The notes below the pieces were generated by a model. That model did not search any database and was not told the origin of the DNA. It saw nothing but the letters and a program-made list of their open reading frames with translations. DNA of 64,000 bases, from assembly GCA_000092065.1 (NCBI GenBank), contig CP000596.1. One strand, given 5' to 3'. This DNA comes from Ostreococcus lucimarinus (Eukaryota). The position numbers and the translations under genes were made by a program. Shown here one piece after another: positions 29,819 through 63,736 of the stretch (its first letter is position 1; the number at the start of each line of letters is the position of its first letter).

Positions 29819-32215
29819 ATGACGACCGATGGCGTCCATGCCGTCGCTGTCGTCGCCGTCGACGCGCAGGCGAAGGGAGACGCGCGCGATGGTGACATTC
29901 AGCCCGCGGCGGCGCGCAGGCCCCCCGCGCTTCGCGTCCCGACGCCAAAGTACGACAACACGATGAGTCCTATGGGGCCGCTCTCGTCGCGTCGGTCGAC
30001 TTCGAGCGATTCCGCGGATGACACGACGATCGATTTCGACGATGACGACGAAGGGCCGATGAAGTCGTGTATTTTGCGTTTGCTAGATGGCGACAACGTC
30101 GCGAGAGAAGTCGTCGCTCGAACGCGCCGCCGCGACGTCGCGCTCCGACGACGGTTCAAAGGCGAAACGTTCGTCGTCGCGCGCGCACACACGAAATACG
30201 AGCGGGAAAAATGCTGCGCCGCACGAACGTATCAGATGCACGTGCTGCGATCGAGTGGGACGTGCGAGGAAACTTCTCGGTACGCCGCGGCACAGGCGTG
30301 TGAGGACGACGTCGCCGAGGTCAACTCCGATCCGGGCACGATGGAGTACTTCGTCGAGGTCGACGACCCGTTCGACACAAAAGTGTACGGCGTCATGCGT
30401 TTCGTACGGCGAGACGTGGACGCGTTGTTGAGAACTAGATTCGATGTTCCGACTCGCGAATCAATTTTGGGCGTCGACTTCGTCGTCGACCGGTTCTTCG
30501 CCACCACTGCGGCGAACGAAATCGCGGGCGAACCGGATGGGGCGACGTTTATTCGAACGCTCATGCTCGATGCCACTCGCAAGGAGGCTTGGCGAATGTC
30601 GCCGTGTCGCGCGGTGCCCATCTTGAGCGCAGTGCCGATCGACGTCGAAGGTGTCAAAGTCTTTGCGCATTCCGCGCGCGACGTCGCGGTGGTGGAGTGC
30701 GACGGCGTCGCGTGCGACGCCGACGTCATGGCTGAGCGTGAAGATTGGGTCACGCGCAAGTTTCTTACGTTATACGTCGTCCCGGCGTCGGCGCCCAACG
30801 AGGCTAAGAACGCGCTTTCGCCGGGCAAGAAGACTTGGCTCGCGTTTGCCGAGGCGCGCGGCGAGACCCTTCGCGACGATGCGACGAACGACGACGCACC
30901 GATGATTTTGACGCTTCACGCGTGTGCGCGGCAGAAAATCGAGTACAACGAGTCTATTCGACTATCATGTATGTATATCATCGCGGAAGCGTGCGGGGAA
31001 ACGCTCTCGGATGAGGAATCAGCAGGCGCCGTCGTGGACGCGCTCGGGTGCGCGCTTCGCGACGATTCCGGAAAGATTTCGCACACGTTGGAATTCGAAC
31101 GAAACGTCTCGCGAGATTTCGTCGATGCCGTCGAGTTTGTGCGCGGTGAGGACGCGTCGTCAACGAAACGCGCCGTGGTGTGCTTGCGCACCGCCTGCGA
31201 TGACGCAGATATTTTTATGGAATCGTTGGAGTCGTCCATGCGCGACGCGGAGACGGATGCCTGCGTGCTCGTCGCTCGATGCTCGACTTACGGCGATCAC
31301 TTGACGTTGTGCGACGGCGACGTGCTTCTTAGCGAAGCTTTAGCGCGCGCCGCATCGAGAGGTCTGTTCGTCGACGGCGGCGTATTCAAGGCGTTCGTGC
31401 GCGAGGACGCGTGTATCATCACCGCCCGTTTTGCGCGACGAGAATTCCGCGTTCGGCCGTCGACGCTCAAAGACGTCGACGCGTTGGTCGCCATCGAGGC
31501 CGAGGCGTGGGTTGAAACGCCAGAGATGCGGACGTCGCCGGAGACCGTGCGCGAGCGCGTTCAAAACAACGCGAGCATGAACTTTGTTGTGGAAGACATC
31601 AAGAGTGGAGACGTCCGAGGCGTCATGTACACGCAATACGTCGAAAGCGTCGACGCGCCGCTCGACGCCACGTGGGAGACGAAGGAGTCGAATCGCCGCG
31701 AGCCGAAATCGACGGATGTCGTTCAACTTCTGGACGTTTTTGTGGATCAGGCTTACGGCGCGAGGTGTGCGAGCGATTCGGGCGCGTCCGTCGGTCAAGA
31801 GCTTCGTAATTATGTGTTACACTACGCCGAGCAGACGGGATTGAGATACGCGTGCGCGGTGACGCGAACGCGAGGATTTCGCTCGACGCAAGCTTTGAAT
31901 CCGAATCTCACGTACGAAGCATACGTCCACGGCGACGCGCTCGATCGTGGCGTGTTCTTCCACACGTCTGCTGGCGCGGAAATCGTGCGCGTCGTTCGTC
32001 CGTGGCGCGCGCGCGATTATGAAAACGAGGGGGCTGGCGTTCTCATTCGGTACGACGTGCGCGAGTACGCGTTTGCCGACGCCGCGCGACGCGGTCGCAC
32101 CTCGCGCGTTCGCCGTCGTCCGAGCGACCCGACCGTGCGCGAAGGACGCGAATACGTCAACGCTCTTGAAAGCGTCGCGTGGGAAGCGCGCGCGCGCGCT
32201 TTTCCCGTGGAATAA
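29819..32215 (+). CDS. hypothetical 798-aa protein, possibly with a GNAT-like acetyltransferase fold at the C-terminus
   Basis: Long mixed-composition ORF; RPSTLKDVDALVAIEAEAW...NFVVEDIKSGDVRGVMYTQYV...LRNYVLHYAEQTGLRYACAVTRTRGF reminiscent of GNAT motifs; first ATG downstream of the Ham1 stop is at 29819. Confidence 0.4.
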   Translation: MTTDGVHAVAVVAVDAQAKGDARDGDIQPAAARRPPALRVPTPKYDNTMSPMGPLSSRRSTSSDSADDTTIDFDDDDEGPMKSCILRLLDGDNVAREVVARTRRRDVALRRRFKGETFVVARAHTKYEREKCCAARTYQMHVLRSSGTCEETSRYAAAQACEDDVAEVNSDPGTMEYFVEVDDPFDTKVYGVMRFVRRDVDALLRTRFDVPTRESILGVDFVVDRFFATTAANEIAGEPDGATFIRTLMLDATRKEAWRMSPCRAVPILSAVPIDVEGVKVFAHSARDVAVVECDGVACDADVMAEREDWVTRKFLTLYVVPASAPNEAKNALSPGKKTWLAFAEARGETLRDDATNDDAPMILTLHACARQKIEYNESIRLSCMYIIAEACGETLSDEESAGAVVDALGCALRDDSGKISHTLEFERNVSRDFVDAVEFVRGEDASSTKRAVVCLRTACDDADIFMESLESSMRDAETDACVLVARCSTYGDHLTLCDGDVLLSEALARAASRGLFVDGGVFKAFVREDACIITARFARREFRVRPSTLKDVDALVAIEAEAWVETPEMRTSPETVRERVQNNASMNFVVEDIKSGDVRGVMYTQYVESVDAPLDATWETKESNRREPKSTDVVQLLDVFVDQAYGARCASDSGASVGQELRNYVLHYAEQTGLRYACAVTRTRGFRSTQALNPNLTYEAYVHGDALDRGVFFHTSAGAEIVRVVRPWRARDYENEGAGVLIRYDVREYAFADAARRGRTSRVRRRPSDPTVREGREYVNALESVAWEARARAFPVE

Positions 32216-33253: not shown

Positions 33254-36200
33254 TCAGATGACGGAGCTGTAGCCGTCGACTTGGCGTGACGTCGTCGCGA
33301 CGAGCGACGTACGTTCGGACATTTCGGCGTCGGCTGGACGCGCGCGCGCGCGGAACGCGAACGCGAACAGCGCGACGCACAGCGTGAACGCGAAGGGAGT
33401 GTAAAAAATTGCGACCTTTTGACTGCCGTCGATGTCATCTTGAGGGCTCGATGATGCGAGAGATGATTTTTGTCGTGGAGAAGATCCCGACGACCCTAGT
33501 TGTGGCGTTTCGGCGGTGCTCGCGCCGACGCGCACAGGTGCGACGAATTCAAACTCAGCCGCTGGGTTGCCTGCGACGTCGGTCACTTCCGTAACAGTCA
33601 CTTTGTGATAGCCTTGTGAAAAGTATGGAAACTTCATCAACCAGTGACCACCAGCGCCATCGTTAACGCATTGAAGGACGTACTGTCTCAAGTCTTCGTT
33701 GGAAACGGCTTCGAAGGGACCCGTCGACGAGTTGCCTCGCTTGGCCGTGATCACTTGCTTCGTGCAATCAATGTCTTCCATGAAATCGACGCGTTGCGTT
33801 ACCTGTGAGCTCACATATTTGAAATCACCGACGAGCGGGTCCTTCGTATCTATCTTCACCATGAGATTTTGATCGCTCACAAATTCGTGCACTGACGGCT
33901 TTGCGAGGTGAGATCCGCCCACGCACATTGTTTTCAATCGGATATCATATTTCCCATCTTTATATCCACTCAGAAGTTTGTTGTAAGGGTCGTTTAGATC
34001 CCAGTCAAAGATGCAACCGTCTCCACCCCGCGACTCCGGGCAAAGTAAATTGAAATTCTTATTCGTGCCGGCACCGCGCTCGGCGTCTTTCGCTGTGATC
34101 CATTCGCCTCCTGATACCGAACGATATTGCACGTAGACGTAGGCGAGATTCCCATTCGTCACCAACGCTTCGGACGTGGATGCAGTTTCCTTGGGCCAGA
34201 GAGAATATCTATTCGGATTTACGACCGAGATGCTCAAAACGCTCGAATCAGACGCTGCGCTCTTCTCAAAGTAACTTGCTTCCTTGCTGAGCGTAGACGA
34301 GTGAAAAGCAACTTGAGGGCAATCTTTACTCCACGACATGGCACCGAGTGTAACACTGCTCGAGATGATCGGGCGATACATGTATTCTTCAATCATCGAC
34401 TCACACAAGCTCACCAAGGAAATCCCCAGGTACGAGCTTTCATACACTCCGTCGCTTGGCTCCACGCTCAGAAGCACGCGACTCTCGCGCACAACGCTTT
34501 GCGAATCCATACGCTCTCCAGCCAATCTTCGTAGAGGTAGGACTTCACCGAATGACCACATTTGAATACCATTGATCGAGAACTTCATTCCCTGTAGGAG
34601 TGTTCCTTGTGCTGTAGTGGTTTGCGTGAGACGAGCGATTGCGTTTGCCAACAATCTCCCTGCTCTGACGCTCATTGACTGTTCGTATGACGCTACGATG
34701 TCTTCAATCCGCGCCTTCAGGTCTTGAATGTCATCAGACTCTGACGCAAAGCATTCGTGGCTATCCGCCATGGCGTATGCTGCATTCTTTACGAACGTTG
34801 CGTTGTCCTCGTTCAACTGTGCCGCGTTATGAGCAGCCGCGATGATTTTTCCAACGCAGTCGGCGACTCCATCTACCAAACGAAGGCCCATGTTGGCCAC
34901 TTCCTTGTAGGGCGACTCATTGCTGATGAGAAGTTGGATCAAAGCGTGCTCTCCTGGGTTCAGATTCGTGTTATGCGTCGACTCCTTACCTATGGTAACG
35001 CCAGCTTCTCGGAACATCGTCCATTTTTCTCCCGGACATTGACTTCTGCCGCCCATCGTGATGAACACTGGAGATCCGAAACGTTTGTCGGAACTGACCT
35101 GGAGCACAAACTTATCCCCAAAATCTGGGTCACCTAATGAGTACATCGTGCTCATGTGTTCATACTTTGCCCAGGCAAAGGCACGACTTTTTGAAACTGA
35201 CTTGCTCATATCCGTGGTAGCACCTACATGCCCCTTGACGATGGCGATTGAACCCGCGAAGGAGTATCCGTTTTCAGCTGAGCCGTCCAGGCTGAGCGTC
35301 CATGCGTAATCTTGACCGTCGACGTTTTCGTTGGAAGAAAATATGTACTCTGTCGAAGCACCACCGCCGCTAAACGATAGTAAAATTGCTTCATCAGCGG
35401 GTCCATTCGAATCTGTGGTGGAGTAGCCGCGGGGACCCATACGCCCTGTAAACGACGCATCGACTCGTTTCGTATCGTTCATGTAAATGGATGCATCCTC
35501 TCCGAGCGTAAGATCGCTAAGATCGCTCGATTGAAGTAGTTGTGACGACACGTCTAGAGCCTGCGTTTTGCATTTTTCTGTGATGCAGGATGAAACCGTG
35601 TTGTTCAGATCTTCACGAGTGGGGCTATTCATCCCCATTGTCGTGACGAGCTCATCCGCTTCTTGAAATTGCTCGAGGAACTTCGGCTTCATCCTTTCAC
35701 TCTTTCGTGACCAGAAAACCTTGCCGACGTCTGGGGTGGCGTCGTTATCGTCGTCGTCACCGCGGAACCCAAGGTTTCCACTCAACAAGTCTGAAAATAA
35801 AGTCCCGGGATTGCTAACGTAGCCACTGATGAGCTGGGACAATCGAGATTCATCCGTCTCATCCGAGAGAATGAAGTCGTTAAGTGTGTCTATAGTACCA
35901 TCCGCGTCGCCCAAGTCCCCTGGAACGCCATGTATGTATGGACTAACTCTGTCGATTCTCTTCCAAGCAAGCTTCAACTCGTCTATTGGGGTAGAAATCG
36001 GACCGCTCGCGTCACTTATGAACGATGTTTCCATTTTCTCGGCTTCCATACCGAACGCGGATTGTTCATCCATAAAAGGAACCATGATGCGCTCCATTGC
36101 GCCGTAGTTTTTACCGTACAACACGGGAGCGCCTTCCGCAGTCGGCTCCATAGGAACCTTGTACACTGTTGGCGAAGCCCACAAAAGTGTGCGTTGCCAC

Positions 36201-39200
36201 ACGTTAATTTTGTCAGCGATGTACTGTGGCCAATTAGGCGCTTCCATTTTAGAATCATCCCCGACGATGAGGCCGCTTTCCACGACGGAAAGCAAATACC
36301 GCAAGTTTGGAATCACTTTCGCTTCAATCGAGTGTACCGTGAATATGTAGGACGTGGGTTTCCTCGGCATCCATGTGATCGCCGTCGATATCCGCAAGCA
36401 CGGTTTATCGTCTTCCCTTAGCGCAAGATCGAGCGTATCGGCTAGCCTGTAGACAAGTTCAACGCCGCCACCTAGAATCGCATCGCCCTGTCGTCCCGGG
36501 ATGGCGACGTCGGTACTTGTCCGTATGACACGATTTATCGTAGCCGTGAGATCCCAACCGACGGCGGAACTCTGAGCGACCGAAAATTCTGGTCCAGACT
36601 CCTCATGGTATGCGTCAAAATCTATCTTAAAGAGAGGCATTCCGAGCTGGAATAAAACCTCCATGCCATACCCAGCGCCGAACCCAGGTTTCGCCTCCAC
36701 TTCGAGTTCTACGCCGCCACCGCCTTCGTGTGAACTCGACACAGACGCCGCTTGTTCGTCTGAAAGCTCCACGGACATGGTCACTTCCGTGCCCATAAGA
36801 AGTTCGGCGTAAGAGTTGCCACCGGGCGGATCATGTACCGTCATGTACACCAAACCTTCGAGTGGAACAGTTGCCCAATACACGTCATCGCTTTCTTCGC
36901 CGTAGATCCCTTCGCCTCGCGGTTTCGAGCCAAGAGAGATGAGCTCTCGTTTCAACGGAACTGTCACTGTCATCGAACCATCAAATCTACCCACAGTCAG
37001 TTCGACAGATCTGCGGTAATTTCCTGAGAGCTTAGGATCTCCCGCGACAATGAGTCGATCCGTCGTCTTCTCGCCCTCATCCGTGGGGAATAAAAGTTTG
37101 TCGCTCTCCGGATCGATCTCAACGTCAAAGTCGCACAATGGTCCTCCATTGCGATCGGTATGACATGGATTTTCGGCTATATCGGTGACGCTTTGTCTGA
37201 ACATGGCCACCGTCATCCCGCCGCTCTCGGCGCTAGGCAGTGTCAAGCATTCATCGAGTGAACCATTCTCCACATGCAGTTCAAGTACTTTGGCGCTCAC
37301 AAGTTTCGGCCCCAAAGCGTAGAGCCCTTCTCCACCGAAATCATCAAAAAATGGCGATATCCCAACAAAGTGGTTGTGTCTAATGCCACCAGCTTTCACG
37401 CCATCAACGTCCCAGCAGTAATCGCCATCGTCGGTGATTACAGAAAGATCTACGAACTCTGCGCACAAATAACCGTGGTACTTGTATCTCGCCGAATACC
37501 AAGTGTGCTCAGTGCGTAATGGTACAAGCCTTTCGATCGTTGTTGGATGCTGGCGGAAGTATGGAATGATGCCGTCTACTCCGACATGACACAACGCGTT
37601 CGGATATTTCTCCTCGCGCATCGCCGTGAAATTCGCTGTGGATGGGGCCTCTTCGATCACTACCGAGTAATCCATCGCGGCGAGTGGCCACCGTCTTCCA
37701 TTCGGAACTTCTTGATATGTTGGTATAACGTCTGAGTTTTCCTTGTCGCGGTCAGGTAGAGTCCAGCCGGATACTTGAGCCGAAGTGAAGATGGCTGGTG
37801 GGTGACAGCCATTGATGGGGGTAATTTTGAAAGTCGCCCCTGTGTAAAGCTTTTCACACTCACCTTGATAGACACCCAAATCGACGTTTGCCGTCGTCGT
37901 GTCTGAGAAGAAAATGTACTTTTTCGATGATACGGCGTGGAGAGTAACTGTGGTCGGTTTACCGTCGCAGCTCCAAATTCTCGTAGCTTCCACGATGGTG
38001 GTTCCCGAATAGCAGATTTCGTGACCGGGATATTCCGCGGTTATCGTGTAGGTTTTCCCGTTTGTGACTGCGAATTCGAACCAGCCAGTCTCGTCTGTAG
38101 TGAATTGTCGCGGCGCACCAGCCTCGCTTTCATCTTTGACATAAATGCTTGCCTCAAAAAGTCCACACTCGGACAACTCGGTCCATTCTATTGGGAACAT
38201 GACGGCACCCAAAATGACCACTGTCGTATCGTCCTGCATTTTCTGCTCTACCTGATGATTATGGGTCAGCTCCAGGTTGATGACATCAATATCAGCCGTA
38301 TCCGAAAATACGGTATCACTTTCATATAGGTCACCATCGTCATCCGAAGTTCCAGCTTGCTTGACGACGTCATTGTTGTTGAATACATGCACGATTTCTG
38401 GCAGCTGCTGCGTGCTCCACAGCGCGACATCCAATCCAGGACGAGTGACGCGCGCGAACAGCGTCTGCGGATCATCTTGAACCACGTCGTGCAGTAGTGC
38501 GGCATCTAAGTCAACGAAAATCTTATTCGAGCCGGGAGATGTAGCAAGTAACGGTGTTGCATACACGGAGGTCTCATCGCCGACGACAATGGCATCGAAC
38601 TCGGCGTCTTCGAGAGGGCGACAGTGATCGATTTTTGACACAACATCACCCCCACTCTCTGCGCTGAGCTCATCATACCACTCGTTCCATCCCTCGGAAG
38701 AGTACGGAACGTGGGCTGATGTCGATCTTCGAACGATGAAATTTTCGCACGCTTTGCCAAACACTTGGCTACGCGCATCCTGGTGAGACTCGTCGGCGAT
38801 CGCAGCGCTAACACTCTGCACGGTGAACAAATCGAAGTCGTATGTAATTTTCCGCGGAGGGAATACGAGCACTGGCTCGACAAACAATGTCCGTTGAGCC
38901 AGACGATGCGCCACACTGAGGAATTCTTGTGCGTTCAGAAGTCCATCACCGTCCATATCCAACGACGAATTCCAAAGTTCTTCTGAAATTATCGCGTACC
39001 CATTGCTTGGAAAACTCGCACCTTTCTCGATGATGGCGGTCAACTCTGACTTATCGATGCCCCCGCTTCCATCTGTGTCTGTCTCGTCAAAATCGTGCAT
39101 CGGTGGTGGAGGCGATGGCGGTGGTGGCGATGGCGGCGGCGGCGATGGCGGCGGCGGCGATGGCGGCGGCGGCGACGGCGGCGGTGGCGACGGTGGCGGC

Positions 39201-42200
39201 GGCGGCGATGGCGGCGGCGGCGACGGCGGCGGCGGTGACGGTGGCGGCGACGGCGGCGGCGGCGATGGCGGCGGTGGTGATGCGATGCGCTCGACCCAGT
39301 GAACGTTTGTGAGAGAACCGGCCTTGACAGAGATATCCGCATGCAGCGGGTACTCGGGAGTCTGTTGACTGGTGTAAAAGCGAATTTCATTCTTGAAGTA
39401 CTCCACGGCTCCGGCGTCGTTGATGACGATTTGCAGCGAGTCGGACGAAGAGTAAGTCCCAGCCATCGTATACTCACGCTTGCCTTTCTCGTACACCTTG
39501 ATCTGTTTGGTATGCGTACAAAAAATCGCAAAATCAAGACTTTGATAATTCGTCGAATCCGTCGTCGACTGAGAGTTCAAACCGATCATCCTGTTGTTGT
39601 ATCCTCCGGCACAGACTGCGGAGATGCCACGCACAGAGTCAGAACCATTTCGAATAGCGCGCTGACTCACCGCACCGGCGTCCCAAGCGCCAGTCACTGC
39701 AGCCGTGCGCGTGACTTGGCCGCTTTCTGTGGATTCGACGCCGACTTGCGATACCCACGCGACATGATCGTCCGCCACCGCCTTTCCTGGCGGCGGCGGC
39801 GGCGGTGACGGTGGCGGCGGCGACGGCGGCGGCGGTGACGGTGGCGGCGGCGACGGCGGCGGCGGCGGCGACGGCGGTGGTGACGCGATGCGCTCGACCC
39901 AGTGAACGTTTGTGAGAGAACCGGCCTTGACAGAGATATCCGCATGCAGCGGGTACTCGGGAGTCTGTTGACTGGTGTAAAAGCGAATTTTATTCTTGAA
40001 GTACTCCACGGCTCCGGCGTCGTTGATGACGATTTGCAGCGAGTCGGACGAAGAGTAAGTCCCAGCCATCGTATACTTACGCTTGCCTTTCTCGTACACC
40101 TTGATCCGTTTGGTATACGTACAAAAAATCGCAAAATCAAGACTTTGATAATTCGTCGAATCCGTCGTCGACTGAGAGTTCAAACCGATCATCCTGTTGT
40201 TGTATCCTCCGGCACAGACTGCGGAGATGCCACGCACAGAGTCAGAACCATTTCGAATAGCGCGCTGACTCACCGCACCGGCGTCCCAAGCGCCAGTCAC
40301 TGCAGCCGTGCGCGTGACTTGGCCACTTTCTGTGGATTCGACGCCGACTTGCGATACCCACGCGACGCTACCAAGTATCTCGCCCGCCACCGCCTTTCCT
40401 GGCGGCGGCGGCGGCGGCGACGGCGACGGCGGCGGCGGTGACGGTGGCGGCGACGGCGGCGGCGGCGATGGCGGTGGTGGTGACGCCATGCGCTCGACCC
40501 ATTTAACATCGCTGAAGGAACCACGCATAATAAAAGCAACATCCGCGTGCAGCGGGTACTCGGGAGTCTGTTGACTGGTGTAAAAGCGAATTTCATTCTT
40601 GAAGTACTCCACGGCTCCGGCGTCGTTGATGACGACTTGCAGTGTATCGCTGTCCGTATACGCCACTGCAGCACCCTTAATTTTTTTACCACCTTCGTAC
40701 ACTTCAACTGCATCGGAGTGAAAATTGCATCTGATGCTGAAGTCCATTCGACTGGACACGGTCTCTGCCGCGGACTGCCGATTCAAGCCGATGAACTTGA
40801 GGCCGGACTCAGACCCACAACGAGCCGAGATTCCGCGCACTGAGTCCGTCAGGCCGTGGATCGACCGACGACTCACCGCACCGGCTGCGGAAAAATAATT
40901 CCACCAATTTGGAGATCGCCGCCAAACTTTTCGATTCGACGCTTTGGCTCTGCGAAGCGTCACCCAGACCACGTTGCCAACCGCCGCTTTTTCAGGCGGC
41001 GGCGGCGGCGGTGGCGACGGCGGCGGTGGCGACGGCGGCGGTGGTATGTACTGCGCAATGTTCCCCAGGAGGCGGCGCCCCCAGCGCTGCCTACCCAAGA
41101 GTGACGTCGTGGTTTCAGGAGATGACGAATCATCTTCCTTTAAGACCAATAAGACTTTACTGGGTACGTTCAGCGGGTCTGTCACGTCCGACGTTTGCAA
41201 GATGGGCTGCGTCGTCTTTTCAAAAACTTCCACTTTGTACGCCCCGATGTCAACGTGAGTTTTGATTGGCGTCATACCCGTGGAGTCTGTGATATGAACA
41301 ACAAACGATCCTTCCGAATCAGTGACCGCGCTGAAAGGGCATCGCGTCTCACCACCCAATACTCTTATTTCAGTCAAATTGACGTCTCGAACCGCCACGA
41401 CTGATACAAACTGCCCGTGCATCGCCTGCACAGTGTCGCCCCCGCCCCCCCCGCATGTAAACGTCAAACAGTCTGCGAATTCATCACTGACATCAGACGG
41501 ATCGTGGTTACATGCATATCCATAATTAGTCGTGTCTTCGGGATCGATTTCATGCACGTGCACTTTCATCGGTAAACTAAGCGTCGGACTCGCCTGTTGC
41601 CGAAATTCAAATCCCGTTACTTCAACTTTGCTCGATTCCGCACCAAACGAAATCTCGGGGAAAGTTATGTATTGATCTTGAGATGATATGAGGGTGGCGT
41701 TGAAACGTCTCCACGATTCCTCATGTATGGTGAATGATTCCGTACTGGCGTCAGTGGCGGATGTTCCGCGCAAGTCGATTGACACCGCGCGTTCACCACC
41801 CAAAGACTTCGCCCAAAACGACACCACGACAGAATCTCCAGTCAGGGCGCGCAAAGACTCGCCAGGAACGTGCACCGTGACTGAAACGCCTGCGTCCACC
41901 GATTTTACAACGTCCTCGAAACCAGGTGGAGGCGCAGTTGGGCTCGCGGTTAAAGGACTGATGGCGCTTGTCTGAACAAGCTCGAGGCGTTCGGTGAGAG
42001 TATTAAGAGTGAAATGAGCTCCGGTGAAGTAGAACGTACTTTCCGACCAAGCTGATACAGTAAATCCGACGAAAGCGGCGTCCTCTAACGTGTGCTTAAG
42101 CCTTATTTTCCTCCATTTATTCGGTTCAGCTGTAATGACGAGCGCGTCACCAACGGTCTGACGGCCTGCTGCTGTAGTTTGTTGTTCATACCCTAAAATC

Positions 42201-45162
42201 TGGAAAGTCATAATCGCCTCCTTCCCGACGGCGCGTACCCAGCATTCCAACAACACTGTATCACCAGCTTCGGCGTCTAGTCGATCAGTATTTTTCGCCC
42301 AGAGTTTCTCGTCTGCTCGCACGAGTCGGATGACATCATTCTCGTAACGAGGTGGATCAACGATCACGTCTGGATCATCGCCTGTATCGCCAGAATACCC
42401 CAGTCGGTCGGTGAGAGAACCCTCGGCAAGTTGGCGTGCCTTGATCGATTGCGGCTGTAGACATACTTGAACACTGCCTATTGACATCCAAAGACCAAGA
42501 TCGACGCGCGCGTAGCCACCCGTCGATACGACGACAGATTCACCGGTAGGTATGTGATTCCCATCGGTGAGCGTGTACGCTTGTTCATTCAAAGGGTTTG
42601 AGTATGCGTGCTTGAAAAGTGCGACATTGCTGGAAGATGATTCGACGTCGTCGCTCGGCCGTAAAGTTATCGTCGAATTCTCATTTTCATCCGCGTCTGG
42701 AGGCCTGGACCCTCGGTAATTTGCGACCTCCCCATCTATTACGATCGGGTCGTGAAAATTAGCGCATATTCGGACGTCGGGTACTGGAACAGCGGAATCA
42801 CCGGCGTACACGTAACCACCTACCTCTCCGTGCCAGGGCGTGATGAATTTGAAAGGGACAGAGTTTATACTTCCACCGGATGATGTTTTCGTCACCACCT
42901 TATACTTCCAAATCTGTCCTGGGATTGCCGCCGCCTCTCTGTCGGCGAAAAGCAACGGCGCGTACGATCGATGACAGTACGTGAGGCCACTGTCAATCAT
43001 CACCACTGACTCATAAGGTGCATCCGTCAGAGAATCCTGCATGCTTTGACGAAGAATCTCGAACCCAACGTCATTCCAGGCGGTATCACGGAAGCTGAAA
43101 GTGACTCCTACTGGATCCAGTTTTCCGTTGACGTCAATAGTAGAACCATCGTAGTACAATCCACCTCCACATTCAAACTTTGAGTAAGTTTCCTCGCGAG
43201 CGTCCGAAATGACGCCACTTAAACACACAATTCTTCGAGCTTTTGGTGCGGATGATTGACGAAGCACGCAGCGCTTGTAATGTCCACATCTTACGGTATC
43301 AATGAACATCACTTCGCGTATCACTCCGGTATACACTCGAACGTCGTCGAATTCAAAATCCACCGCGCCAAGCAGTGTAACGTCCGTCATTGACTCGAGC
43401 GCGCTCAGCGGCCAAGTTTCATCGCGCGTGTAAGTCGTATCATCGATTACTGTGGCCTTTGCGTCACTCGTTGGATCTACGTACAATGTCATGAAATTCA
43501 CCGAGTTTACGGCGAACGCGATGAGGTGCCACTCCCCGTCGCACGCAAAATCAAGTTTCACATCCTTTGAGGATGTGAAAGCGCTCGGAGGATCCACAGA
43601 CTCCTTGACCTGATGAGATGCCCGCAGTTCGACCATGCCGTCGCTCGTACGTATCTTGAGGTATACGTGGAGTCTGTGATCGTGAAGTCCCAACTGTCCT
43701 TGAAACTGAGCGACCGTCATGAGTGATTCGTCGTTGGAGGATTTGGGTTGCGAGCAACGACTTGGATCGATGCGCACCCATGTGCTCATCGCGATGTCGT
43801 GCCCAAGCGTATCTTCTTTATCAAGAGAGTATGAATAATCGTTCGTCCCAGGATCATCCACTGCTTGAAGGCAGCGAAATCCGTTGCCCCCCGAACATCC
43901 CGATATTGTGCGAGCGGATTTCGGCTGCAATCTCATCGGGACGGAAGACTGTCCGTCGACGATTGGCGCGACCGAATCAAGCGATCCGTCGTGTAAAGGG
44001 TCTTCATCAAACGTAAATGCTGCCACGAGAGAAGCGTGTTCGTCGAGAAAGTCACTCGTTGCTGGGCGAATGTCCGTGAAGGAGATGGGAAGTTGAAGCG
44101 TCGTGCCGCCGACTTCATACTCTTCAAAGCGCACATCGACGACGTCGTCGACTGTACCGTCGGCAACGTTGATCTGATTGAAGAGTATACCATCCACGTA
44201 TGCGCAGACGTAATCGCCGTTCGTTGGCTTAGGACTGTACGACCATGCAGTGGTGAGCCCGTTGAGGCCACTCACACAGCGATTCTCCGTTTGCCAGTCG
44301 AGAGTCGGATAGGTGATGCTATCGATACTGAAACTGTTCGACGGAGCTCCGCTGCACTTGACGGGTCGAACGGGGATTTCCATCACGTCGACAATAGACA
44401 CTGCCAGATCTGTGTCGTGCGCGGCGCGAAATTGGTCATTCCAAACGTTGAGAATGTACCTCGAAACGCTTTGTTCCACCAACATGGCCTGAAGTTCATT
44501 CAGTCGCAGCAGTCCGTCGCTGGGATCGACGTCGTGCCTACGAAAGATGCTTTCCTTTGTCTTGTAAATTTCGCCATCATCGCACAGCACGTTGTTGAAT
44601 TGATCGTTACTCAGCAATATGTACCGGACCAGTTCTTCAAGCCCCGAATTCTGATTCGCGCTCGCTTGGCCGGCGGCGTTGAATCCGAGAGGCAGGTGCA
44701 AATCGCAACCCTTGATAACTTCGAAAGAGTGTTGACCAACGGTTTCCGAACCTGGAACGATGCCATCGACCGTAACAAAGTGACAGTTATAAGTTATGGT
44801 GTGAGATCCAACCGAGTGCGTCCCATCCAACTCTGTGAGCGCGAGCGCCTTCGGGAAAAAATCATTCCATTTGCGACACGGTAAGTTATCCGCGTAATCC
44901 GACTCGGAACACGACTGATCGTCTCGTTTCACGCGAACATCGCATCGGAGACCAAGCGCGTGATTGCTCACGCTCTCTTCATTCACATTCAGTAAACAAT
45001 CGCTCGCTTCAGCGCACGCGGGATGATGCACCGCGACTTGGAAATCGTACGAGTACGCCGCAACCCTCTCCGTGGTGGAACCAAATCTCACTTCAATCGC
45101 AGCACCGGCACCAGGCGGCGGCGGTGGACTCGGCGGCGGCGGGCTCGGCGGCGGGCTCGGCG

Positions 45163-45202
<40 letters not shown>

Positions 45203-45484
45203 CGGACTCGGCGGCGGCGGCGGGCTCGGCGGCGGCGAACAATTCGCTATACCCTCGCAATTCTCCGTTCGTGTTTGTCCCTCATACGCTCCACAACTTC
45301 GTCCACCGTTTCGCGGCTTGACGGTGATCGTGAACGTCTGCGAGTACGTCGCCGGTCCGCAAAAAGCCGTGCAACTCCCTTGCCAAAAGCCTACACAATC
45401 CGTTTTCGGCGGCGACGGCGACGACCCCCCGTGGACCCCTCGCAGCGACGACAGCGCGCTCGCGACGACCAACCCGCGCATCAT
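33254..45484 (-). CDS. giant single-exon cell-surface glycoprotein (about 4,076 aa from the MMRGLVV signal peptide); predicted type-I membrane protein with a hydroxyproline-rich/extensin-like multi-domain ectodomain
   Basis: Uninterrupted 12.3-kb ORF. MMRGLVVASALSSLRGVHG signal peptide; Cys-rich TSP1-like module (SCTAFCG...KPRNGGRSCGAYEGQTRTENC); many S(P)4 runs; two perfect EF-hand loops (DTDGSGGIDKSE, DMDGDGLLNAQE); three 201-aa repeat modules; C-terminal TM IFYTPFAFTLCVALFAFAF plus a 30-aa tail; GC about 48-52% versus 65-70% in flanking genes. Confidence 0.8.
39103..41040. repeat. 3 x 603-bp coding tandem array inside the giant gene (units begin near 39291, 39894, 40497) separated by GGC/GGT-rich Pro-linker DNA
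   Basis: Antisense ORFs at 39299 and 39902 translate identically over more than 150 aa (exact 603-nt offset); third unit at +1206 is more diverged; each unit encodes a 201-aa module ending ...AVEYFKNEIRFYTSQQTPEYPLHAD. Confidence 0.85.
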
Positions 45485-45569
45485 CGTTCGCGTCGCGTCC
45501 CATCGACGTCCGGCGCCATCGCGCGTCGTCGACCGCGACGGCGCGCGTCGTTCGCGAAGCTGACGCGGC

Positions 45570-45602
<33 letters not shown>

Positions 45603-61522: not shown

Positions 61523-63736
61523 CTATTCGTCTCGCGCCCAGACGTCGCTGTAGACTCCGGGACGCGAGCTCTTCGGCGGATTGGCGCGACGACGAATGTA
61601 CGGCCCGCTCGATCTGAACCGACCGGTGCCGTCGTCGGGGAGCGCTAAAGCGACGTCACCGATGAGCGGGGTCGCAGCCTCGGTCCTGTCGGTGCGACGT
61701 CGATTGAATGAAATGGTTGAATCGTCGTCGTCGTTGACGCTGTACGAAAACGCCTTGACGGGCTTGTGCGTCGCCGTGCCGAATTCGTCGGCATGTGTGA
61801 TGTACAAGTCTTCATCGAACGCCAAAAGATCGACGTCTTCGTCTTCGTCGTCGCCGTCTATGATGCCGTAATCATCGACGTCCCGGTTGAACGCGCGACG
61901 AAGCGTGCACACGCTCGCCGCGACGAACGTGATCAACACGACGACGGAAAAAGACAGGAAACGCCAGACATCCGCGTTGACCTGCGCCGAGGCGCGCTTG
62001 TACACTCGAACGTAGTCGACGTAATGAAACATGTCATCGTCGCACTGATTGAGCGCCGCAGGCATGCCGAACGGCGACACCGCGGTGTTCAGGATGAGAT
62101 AAAACGGCCATCGCGGAATGATGGGCACATTAAAGCGCGTCAAGTGATGCACGGGATGACCGTCGACGGTGAACGTCAAGCTATCCTTCGACCACTCCAC
62201 CGCATACGTGTGGAAATCCGCGCTGAAATCGATCGCGGGGTCCATCATGGGCGGGTACGCGCTTCGCGAGAAGCCTTCGGCGCCGCACTCCGCCTTTGGG
62301 GCGAAATGATATCCCGATTCCACCGTTCCCGCACGCGTCCCGGGCCCGCCCAAACCTCTGCCGTACGACTGCATGATGTCAATTTGCCCGCCAAGCGGCC
62401 AGCACGCGCGCTTCGGCACGCTCTTCTCGGGGTCAGGTAACATCCAGTGCTGCGGCCAAACGCCCGGACACTTGGACTCGGGAATCTTCGCGCGAATCTC
62501 AACTCGCCCGTACGTTTGCGTGAACGCCTCTTTCGTGTCCACCCAGCACGACAGGAACGGATACTGATCACCGCGACCACGATGACCCACGGCACCTCCG
62601 TGTGGCGTCGCGGCAGTGCGCACGCCTCGCTGACGCCGCGTCCCGATGACGAGCGCGCCGTCGACGACTTTACACATCTCGGGAACGTAAAACTGTTGCT
62701 GTCCGCCGTGTCGCTCTAAACCTGGCGCGCTCTCGTTCACCTTCGGTCGCCATTTCGATAAATCTAACGCATCACCGTCGAACTCGTCGCTGAACGTCAA
62801 CTCCCATCCCGGCTGTCTCGCGTCCTTCGACGAGGCGCCCTTCGTCGACCCCGGCACGCTTTGCGGAAACCCACGTCGAGGGGTCGCGCCCGCGCGCCGC
62901 CGCGCCGCCGCGCGCTCTTTTATCGCCGCCGCGTTCGCTGGCGGTCGAGTCGGCATCGTTCTCGCCGCCGACGGCGCGTCTTCTTCCCCTCCCGTCGCGC
63001 CGTCGCCCGCGCCGGCGAGCGCGTCTCTCGCGCGACGCAGCGCCTCGTCTGGATCCTCCAACGCCCCCAGCGCCGCCTCATCGCGTTCTCTGCGCATTCG
63101 CGCCCGTCTAATTTTCATCATCTGTCGCTTCGTCGGCGCCCTCGCGCCCAACCGCGCCGTCGAACCGCCCGCGTCGTCTTCGTCCTCCTCCTCGTCCTCG
63201 TACGCCTCCTCGTCCTCGTCCTCGTCCGCCCCGTACATCTCGTCCGGATCGTCCGGCGCCTCGTCCTCGACGATCCTGCGCATCAACGCGTCGTCCATCG
63301 TCCCGAACCGCGTCCCCGCGCTCGCGTCGACGTACCCCGGCGCGTCGCCCGCGTCGTCCCGCGCGTTGGGTGTTGCGTCTCGCGTCGTCCCGTCCCCGCC
63401 CGCGCCTTCGCCCGTCGCGCGTCCCGATCGCGCCCTCGCGAGCGTCGCGAGCGTCACCGCGCACATCGCCGCCCGCGCGCGACGCGACGTCGCGCCGCGC
63501 GTCGCGCGCCGCGATCGGCGCCGCGTCGAATGCGCGGCGTCCATCGCCTCGCGCGCGTCGTCCCGCGTCGACGTCGTCGCCGTCGGTCGCCGCGCGCCGC
63601 CGCGCGCGTCGCCGCCGTCGCGCGTCACGCGCGCGACGTCGCCGTGTGTCGCGCGCCGCGCCGCGCGACCGACGACCGACGCCGCGCGCGGGATGTTGGC
63701 GCCGCGCATAAAACCAATCGCGCGATTCGTTCGCAT
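61523..63736 (-). CDS. glycoside hydrolase family 16 (laminarinase-like) domain protein with a C-terminal TM anchor; catalytic motif degenerate (QIDIMQ); true start uncertain (possibly 63466)
   Basis: WELTFSDEFDGDALDLSKW, PGVWPQHWMLPD, WPLGGQIDIMQSYGRG and FHTYAVEWSKDSLTFTVDG match GH16 laminarinase blocks; TM FLSFSVVVLITFVAASVCTL near the C-terminus; long low-complexity N-terminal extension. Confidence 0.55.
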   Translation of the reverse strand: MRTNRAIGFMRGANIPRAASVVGRAARRATHGDVARVTRDGGDARGGARRPTATTSTRDDAREAMDAAHSTRRRSRRATRGATSRRARAAMCAVTLATLARARSGRATGEGAGGDGTTRDATPNARDDAGDAPGYVDASAGTRFGTMDDALMRRIVEDEAPDDPDEMYGADEDEDEEAYEDEEEDEDDAGGSTARLGARAPTKRQMMKIRRARMRRERDEAALGALEDPDEALRRARDALAGAGDGATGGEEDAPSAARTMPTRPPANAAAIKERAAARRRAGATPRRGFPQSVPGSTKGASSKDARQPGWELTFSDEFDGDALDLSKWRPKVNESAPGLERHGGQQQFYVPEMCKVVDGALVIGTRRQRGVRTAATPHGGAVGHRGRGDQYPFLSCWVDTKEAFTQTYGRVEIRAKIPESKCPGVWPQHWMLPDPEKSVPKRACWPLGGQIDIMQSYGRGLGGPGTRAGTVESGYHFAPKAECGAEGFSRSAYPPMMDPAIDFSADFHTYAVEWSKDSLTFTVDGHPVHHLTRFNVPIIPRWPFYLILNTAVSPFGMPAALNQCDDDMFHYVDYVRVYKRASAQVNADVWRFLSFSVVVLITFVAASVCTLRRAFNRDVDDYGIIDGDDEDEDVDLLAFDEDLYITHADEFGTATHKPVKAFSYSVNDDDDSTISFNRRRTDRTEAATPLIGDVALALPDDGTGRFRSSGPYIRRRANPPKSSRPGVYSDVWARDE

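Follow-up and report, generated by a model that had tools for sequence, protein, structure and literature searches.

Homogenised SPRY-like domain repeats in a giant extensin-type gene of Ostreococcus lucimarinus

Results

Three domain-sized repeats lie within one giant open reading frame

We analysed a stretch of 64,000 nucleotides (nt) of Ostreococcus lucimarinus contig CP000596.1 (assembly GCA_000092065.1), hereafter the window. Its minus strand carries a giant open reading frame (ORF), and within this one ORF lie three direct copies of a domain-sized sequence, spaced 603 + 603 nt from start to start. The copies were recovered by a repeat search and by a scan for self-matches at a lag of 603 nt, in which 48-50 of every 50 nt matched between about 39250 and 39750; Tandem Repeats Finder (TRF), with a period limit of 500, did not report the array. 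In the translation there are five S(P)n runs, four of which bracket the three domains of about 170 residues that we designate units A, B and C (Table 1). The linkers are encoded by GGC/GGT-rich, microsatellite-like DNA that bounds every unit. An initial annotation of this sequence had described three 603-bp copies in the giant ORF, flanked by such linker DNA, and both observations are borne out.

The cores of B and C are identical at 496 of 507 nt (97.8%), with only five mismatches over 39291-39763; at the codon level, two differences are synonymous and seven nonsynonymous. Thus the initial annotation was right to call the two units near-identical, but its claim of identical translations over more than 150 residues does not hold: 162 of 172 aligned residues are equal, and the longest identical run is 83 residues. 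The unit boundaries that it proposed (39291, 39894 and 40497) cut through the linkers. In that 603-nt register identity is 91.4% ungapped and 97.6% gapped, and so does not fall below 90%; differing linker lengths and a 9-nt indel at the domain's N-terminal junction account for most of the 52 ungapped mismatches. B and C can be told apart by substitutions, junctions and linkers. Unit A shares about 61% of its nucleotides and 52% of its amino acids with B and C. The third unit is therefore clearly diverged overall, as had been proposed, but not uniformly so, because a 102-nt tract within it is almost identical to C.

Two plus-strand ORFs, at 39299-39808 (169 codons) and 39902-40441 (179 codons), were considered as genes and rejected as antisense shadows of C and B in GC-rich coding DNA.

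Table 1. Features of the giant ORF and its repeat array. Positions are those of the window unless a contig is named; residues are those of the ORF translation.
Feature	Position	Strand	Residues	Basis and remarks
Giant ORF	33254-45571	minus		4105 codons; ORF list and translation
TSP1-like cysteine module, weak	about 45254-45379	minus		TSP1_spondin, E 0.054; after the signal peptide
N-terminal S(P)n linker	45113-45238	minus	112-153	Translation; comes after the weak TSP1-like module
S(P)n linker 1	40994-41044	minus	1510-1526	Ahead of unit A; GGC-rich tandem repeat (TRF), translation
Unit A	40484-40993	minus	1527-1696	Diverged SPRY-like domain, variable cassette slot; alignment to B and C
Gene-conversion tract in unit A	40541-40642	minus		102 nt, 100/102 identical to C; encodes ..VINDAGAVEYFKNEIRFYTSQQTPEYPLHAD..
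S(P)n linker 2	40400-40483	minus	1697-1724	TRF, translation
Unit B	39884-40399	minus	1725-1896	SPRY-like domain; alignment, model
S(P)n linker 3	39788-39883	minus	1897-1928	TRF, translation
Unit C	39281-39787	minus	1929-2097	SPRY-like domain; unit used for the structure model
Hypervariable patch of unit C	39443-39523	minus		Unit residues 89-115; B equivalent about 40046-40126
S(P)n linker 4	39101-39280	minus	2098-2157	Longest linker (60 residues); TRF, translation
EF-hand pair	38912-39091	minus	2161-2220	Pfam EF-hand_1/6/7, E 1.6e-5 to 3.7e-4, just below curated Pfam cut-offs
Putative C-terminal transmembrane helix	33353-33415	minus		VAIFYTPFAFTLCVALFAFAF, then 32-residue basic tail; read by eye from translation
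SUEL cassette	L009:4293-5325 (also L010, L011)			In place of window about 40466-41093; rhamnose/galactose-binding

Units B and C evolve in concert

Related sequences were gathered by exact-protein look-ups and one metagenome scan, giving 14 loci. One of these, L009, belongs with L010 and L011 to a diverged lineage in which the array flanks are 94-97% identical to the window. The first B/C-type unit of L009 has the three-residue junction insertion characteristic of B (GKAVVGKISGQV vs GKAVAGEILGSV), and the second has the C-type junction (GKAVAGDHV vs GKAVADDHV); because the same junction indel pattern is kept, the B and C positions are orthologous between the lineages. Identity is 95.9% between the two L009 units and 90-91% (about 90.5%) between these and B and C of the window. 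Synonymous divergence (dS, by the Nei-Gojobori method) was 0.026 between B and C of the window and 0.037 between the two L009 units, versus 0.102-0.108 (0.105) between any window unit and any L009 unit. Paralogues within a genome are thus closer to each other than to their positional orthologues in the other lineage, silent sites included, which is the pattern of concerted evolution. Derived residues follow the same pattern, with both L009 paralogues sharing SRW, GEYAAR, NWQS and HCRQDKTIRV, and both L006 paralogues sharing NFGS, THAKQ and GKYKY.

A very recent duplication of one unit in the reference strain (B to C or the reverse), with no homogenisation, would account for there being just 11 differences between the B and C cores. 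It would not account for a B/C pair with position-specific junctions in every sampled lineage, one of them about 10% diverged, for lineage-specific derived residues shared by paralogues, for a within-genome dS 3-4 times below the between-lineage dS, or for a separate conversion tract in the old paralogue A. We regard such a duplication as quite unlikely. Where the initial annotation had offered recent duplication or ongoing concerted evolution, the latter is supported and the former does not fit on its own.

The tract in unit A is discrete and has sharp boundaries. It contains an 88-nt perfect run, the rest of unit A being about 50% identical (permutation P < 1e-5), and same-amino-acid codons are identical in 32 of 33 cases within the tract vs 23 of 50 outside it (Fisher 7e-7). 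The tract is present in the window, L002 and L006, and in L003 it runs to the end of the unit. The A allele of L001 lacks the B/C-type tract and reads INDDGFVEYFNDGRRFYTSRRTPTYPLHAD; because this allele has a different sequence there, the tract is not obligatory.

The B/C likeness and the A tract might instead be put down to purifying selection, acting either on the protein or on some nucleic-acid element and not involving exchange, and the C-terminal third of the domain is indeed conserved across all units and lineages. Such selection seems a very improbable explanation, given that synonymous sites in the tract are homogenised too, that the L001 A allele differs over a tract segment, and that the units have a ratio of nonsynonymous to synonymous divergence (dN/dS, omega) near 1 between lineages (see below).

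Together, the junction orthology, the dS contrast, the shared derived residues and the strain-specific tracts argue for ongoing exchange and not for a single recent duplication. The aligned alleles show recurrent, strain-specific, non-reciprocal exchange among the units. By the same comparisons, the B/C duplication predates the split of the sampled lineages, with 96-98% identity kept within each genome by exchange.

Slot A is replaced as a cassette

In L009, L010 and L011, about 1 kb that codes for three SUEL lectin domains (PF02140, E 1.7e-75) takes the place of unit A, along with linker 1 ahead of it and some of linker 2, and two B/C-type units come after this cassette. The homology breakpoints of the swap are at or near linker DNA. 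L001 has a unit A allele that is 66% identical in nucleotides to that of the window. At the level of alignment, these alleles show slot A to be exchanged as a cassette between repetitive linker-coding stretches. Between lineages it is module content that appears to vary, and not copy number.

Two-unit contigs are explicable by assembly collapse

Three units are found in the window and in L001 and L002, two independent contigs (98 kb and 21 kb) that span the whole array and are 96% identical to the window, syntenic with it and equal to it in total length. Two units are found in L005 (58 kb) and L007 (35 kb), both from short-read metagenome assemblies, in which unit A accompanies a single B/C hybrid unit. 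In the L005 hybrid, the first 22 diagnostic sites are B-type and the other 21 are C-type, with a single switch within a 209-nt stretch that is identical in B and C. L006, from a consecutively numbered dataset of the Joint Genome Institute (JGI), has a unit A identical to that of L007 followed by B, a linker and C. Because the switch falls cleanly in an identical stretch, and because L006 shows B then C, assembly collapse is at least as likely as real deletion for L005 and L007, and both contigs are probably collapsed.

The initial annotation had suggested a copy-number-variable locus, in which two versus three units in populations would tune the length or avidity of the protein. L005 and L007 are long contigs with the structure expected of unequal crossing-over, and linker lengths vary among strains. 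De Bruijn-graph collapse predicts the same structure, though, and neither the B-then-C order in L006 nor the absence of any contig with more than two B/C-type units favours real variation. We consider variation in copy number doubtful, and the suggestion is unproven on these contigs. The converse concern, that the reference array is itself collapsed or mis-expanded, arises from the way short-read metagenome contigs mishandle the array, as in the two hybrids and in L003 and L006, which stop inside the repeat. Since the independent spanning contigs have the same three units and overall length, and the B/C substitutions, junctions and linkers anchor each unit, an artefact of this kind is scarcely credible, and nothing points to the collapse of the reference array that had been raised as a possibility.

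Two further observations concern these contigs. On L004:1-1893, a short MEGAHIT-style contig, the end of one unit, a linker and a 148-residue portion of a B-type unit run directly into a ribosomal protein L10 gene, which probably reflects chimeric assembly at the repeat. In two related strains, about 345 nt immediately upstream of the giant ORF (L003:4682-5025 and L007:258-600) are 83% identical to window 31718-32063, which belongs to the gene that lies downstream of this ORF; the window has no copy on the upstream side. The segment could represent a small dispersed duplication or rearrangement.

The units change rapidly, with replacements concentrated in one patch

Rates of protein change were estimated from one lineage pair, the window and L009 (Nei-Gojobori). 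Omega was 0.98 for unit B (dN 0.103) and 0.89 for unit C (dN 0.094), and was 0.45 for the N-terminal 1356 residues (dN 0.049) and 0.37 for the C-terminal 1933 residues (dN 0.011). Within unit C, a patch of 27 residues had 14 nonsynonymous codon changes and no synonymous one, as against 10 and 9 elsewhere in the unit. Of the 24 codons with replacements in unit C, 14 thus lie in the patch (Fisher 0.004, N-run permutation 0.013, positional binomial 3e-6). Three of the four amino-acid differences between the B and C core domains also fall inside it, as do most strain variants, including those of P0001-P0004 and L006. This suggests that diversifying selection may act on one face of the domain.

Synonymous divergence between the window and L009 varied from one part of the gene to another: it was 0.107 in the N-terminal portion and in the units but 0.030 in the C-terminal portion, which points to recombination between lineages within the gene and suggests that the gene has mosaic ancestry.

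The unit is SPRY-like by predicted fold and matches no curated model

To assign the repeat domain we relied on a structure model of unit C, built from a 50-sequence alignment with a predicted local distance difference test score (pLDDT) of 91; an earlier model from a three-sequence alignment (pLDDT 47) was discarded. The model is a two-sheet bent beta-sandwich (jelly-roll) of the SPRY/concanavalin-A-like type, and it superposes on solved SPRY domains (SPRYD3, 2yyo; RanBP9, 5ji7; TRIM PRYSPRY) with 8-18% sequence identity. With units A and C as queries, hmmscan returned no Pfam-A family at E <= 10, neither SPRY (PF00622) nor LamG, and NCBIfam gave no match to the repeat domain. For Laminin_G_3 there were sub-threshold summed signals only, on distant multi-repeat relatives. 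Because the fold superposes on SPRY domains, yet Pfam and NCBIfam give no match, we describe the unit as a SPRY-like member of the concanavalin-A-like superfamily by modelled fold, and by no curated sequence model. The predicted fold implies a binding module.

An exhaustive profile search with the three units retrieved 1994 representative proteins at E <= 1e-3, of which 723 were retrieved at E <= 1e-10. Many are large, with 4-25 tandem copies per protein, and among them are proteins that carry a bacterial-type signal peptide and Calx-beta domains, a protein of Roombia truncata and a second O. lucimarinus protein, XP_001421376.1. In a viral structure library the best matches were phage proteins, including a Cellulophaga phage structural protein (TM 0.80), and a profile search of the PDB gave a marginal match only, to the phage-type 'structural protein' 26gp_Q (E 4e-4). 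A viral contig scan with the unit alignment found no relative, and so gave no evidence for close copies in prasinoviruses.

Two other sequences related to the domain were seen in passing. P0081, a family member of 6469 residues on a 4.47-Mb contig, carries the JGI name 'ribosomal protein S4E', which looks mis-annotated. L014:1985-2197, on a metagenome contig with 33% G+C, encodes a sequence distantly related to the conserved C-terminal portion of the unit, with 35% identity over 70 residues.

The host gene corresponds to a listed long chimeric extensin

From Met30 of the giant ORF (start codon 45482-45484) the product is 4076 residues long, and its SP3, SP4, SP≥5 and YXY motifs number 5, 19, 9 and 7. 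Length and motif counts are identical to those of JGI O. lucimarinus protein 25682, which PMC4769139 (Table S1) classes as a 'Long Chimeric EXT' (extensin), one of four in this species; the table gives it a signal peptide but no glycosylphosphatidylinositol anchor. Such proteins are defined in that survey by at least two SPPP motifs and non-extensin domains, and are usually longer than 2,000 residues (PMC4769139); in motif counts and length the ORF product agrees. A literature search found no paper on this array, and the extensin survey was its sole relevant source. Among the NCBI-sourced proteins of the collections that we searched, neither the 4105-residue ORF nor any protein containing the repeat unit was present, despite the JGI/Phytozome model 25682, and the GenBank annotation of strain CCE9901 may lack or truncate the gene.

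Outside the array the product has few recognisable parts, about 3200 residues being without any Pfam match. The EF-hand pair lies directly behind the array and is kept in L005, L007 and L009, and the Pfam scan also gave a weak CarboxypepD_reg-like stretch elsewhere in the protein. The signal peptide, the S(P)n spacers, the putative transmembrane helix, the binding-type domains and the extensin listing lead us to infer that the product is a type-I membrane glycoprotein at the cell surface, in keeping with the initial annotation, which had proposed a cell-surface protein.

The gene has a G+C content of 51-56%, versus 60-70% in the surrounding 60 kb. A giant-virus or bacterial origin of the window was considered and rejected, because five ORFs neighbouring the giant ORF match nuclear-encoded O. 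lucimarinus CCE9901 proteins from a 428,333-bp record exactly, including Elongator subunit 1 (XP_001421896.1) and XP_001421899.1. About 16 kb upstream of the giant ORF start codon, a 737-residue ORF (61523-63736, minus strand) matches proteins annotated by JGI as GH16-family beta-glucanase, likewise of concanavalin-A-like fold.

Discussion

We consider it likely that this locus encodes a giant surface protein with three binding-type modules, set between S(P)n spacers, in its ectodomain, that the array evolves fast, that B and C are kept alike by homogenisation and A has been partly converted, and that slot A has been swapped. Units B, C and A exchange sequence non-reciprocally by gene conversion, possibly also by unequal crossing-over, and the process that homogenises B and C has likewise left the 102-nt B/C tract in unit A, the old paralogue. 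The GGC/GGT-rich linker DNA, together with identical core stretches of 200-470 nt, may supply the homology for mispaired repair or unequal exchange. In the protein, the S(P)n runs may form stiff, glycosylated polyproline spacers that hold the modules away from the membrane, by analogy with algal hydroxyproline-rich glycoproteins (HRGPs; PMC4769139; PMC2113723). The modules themselves could be ligand-binding heads for recognition or adhesion, and their diversification may reflect selection on recognition, for example in the attachment of viruses, recognition between gametes or between cells, or the binding of particles.

Several points weigh against this interpretation. A separate B/C duplication in each lineage is conceivable, although the same junction indel pattern would have had to arise twice. 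The comparisons draw on a handful of alleles, all from metagenome contigs and some with frameshifts. The surface location and glycosylation of the protein are predictions. The fold is common to protein-binding SPRY domains and carbohydrate-binding modules, and so is compatible with either class of ligand. An omega near 1 suits relaxed constraint equally well as diversifying selection, the patch was picked after inspection of the data, and B and C, being homogenised, are not independent observations of it.

A more far-reaching reading, which we put forward tentatively, is that the gene is a hypervariable recognition locus in which the patch is under positive selection, its variants are spread by conversion and whole cassettes are swapped at the linkers. 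The product might then be an attachment target, a prasinovirus decoy, or a gamete or self-recognition molecule, and the uneven dS along the gene would reflect old alleles under balancing selection. To our knowledge, a sexual cycle of this picoalga has never been observed.

Several known systems resemble parts of this arrangement. Most classical SPRY domains of eukaryotes are found in the cytoplasm or nucleus, whereas the modules here are predicted to be extracellular and stand in tandem between extensin-type spacers; the nearest sequence relatives of the unit are uncharacterised multi-repeat bacterial and protist proteins and phage structural proteins. Like the long chimeric extensins and other HRGPs, the giant protein is very long, predicted to be secreted and rich in S(P)3-5 motifs, with interspersed globular domains. 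One difference is that Ostreococcus is wall-less. Among the HRGPs are the sexual agglutinins of Chlamydomonas, whose rod-like shaft carries a head for gamete recognition (PMC2113723). The cane-shaped agglutinins have one long shaft, whereas the giant protein has short S(P)n spacers of 17-60 residues between domains, and the likeness is one of architectural analogy.

With repeat adhesins (fungal Als/Flo, bacterial Rib/alpha-C and staphylococcal SraP-type proteins) the array shares near-identical, in-frame, domain-sized DNA repeats, intragenic homogenisation and, probably, collapse in short-read assemblies. It differs from them in having two homogenised units beside one old paralogue, and in varying mainly by cassette replacement and patch substitutions. 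XP_001421376.1 (P0232), from the same genome, is built from domains of the family found here: 12-13 of them form X-Y di-domain super-repeats with 97-100% identity to one another. That protein differs in having no S(P)n linkers, in being encoded on another chromosome (a 708,927-bp record) and in its longer and more perfectly homogenised array.

The locus is thus a well-documented further case of a known process, the homogenisation of domain repeats in what is predicted to be a surface protein. Added interest comes from the uncatalogued SPRY-like family, the SUEL lectin cassette swap and the localised excess of replacements. There is also a practical warning, in that short-read metagenome assemblies may drop one unit of the array. 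For the domain family, the finding means that about 2000 proteins in bacteria and protists and among phage structural proteins, with up to 25 copies each, share a domain for which Pfam and NCBIfam hold no model. Ostreococcus is a model of the marine picophytoplankton in which virus resistance, the cell surface and cryptic sex are poorly understood at the molecular level. The locus offers a candidate recognition molecule of a size amenable to the polymerase chain reaction, with fast protein evolution, apparent conversion and cassette exchange among natural strains.

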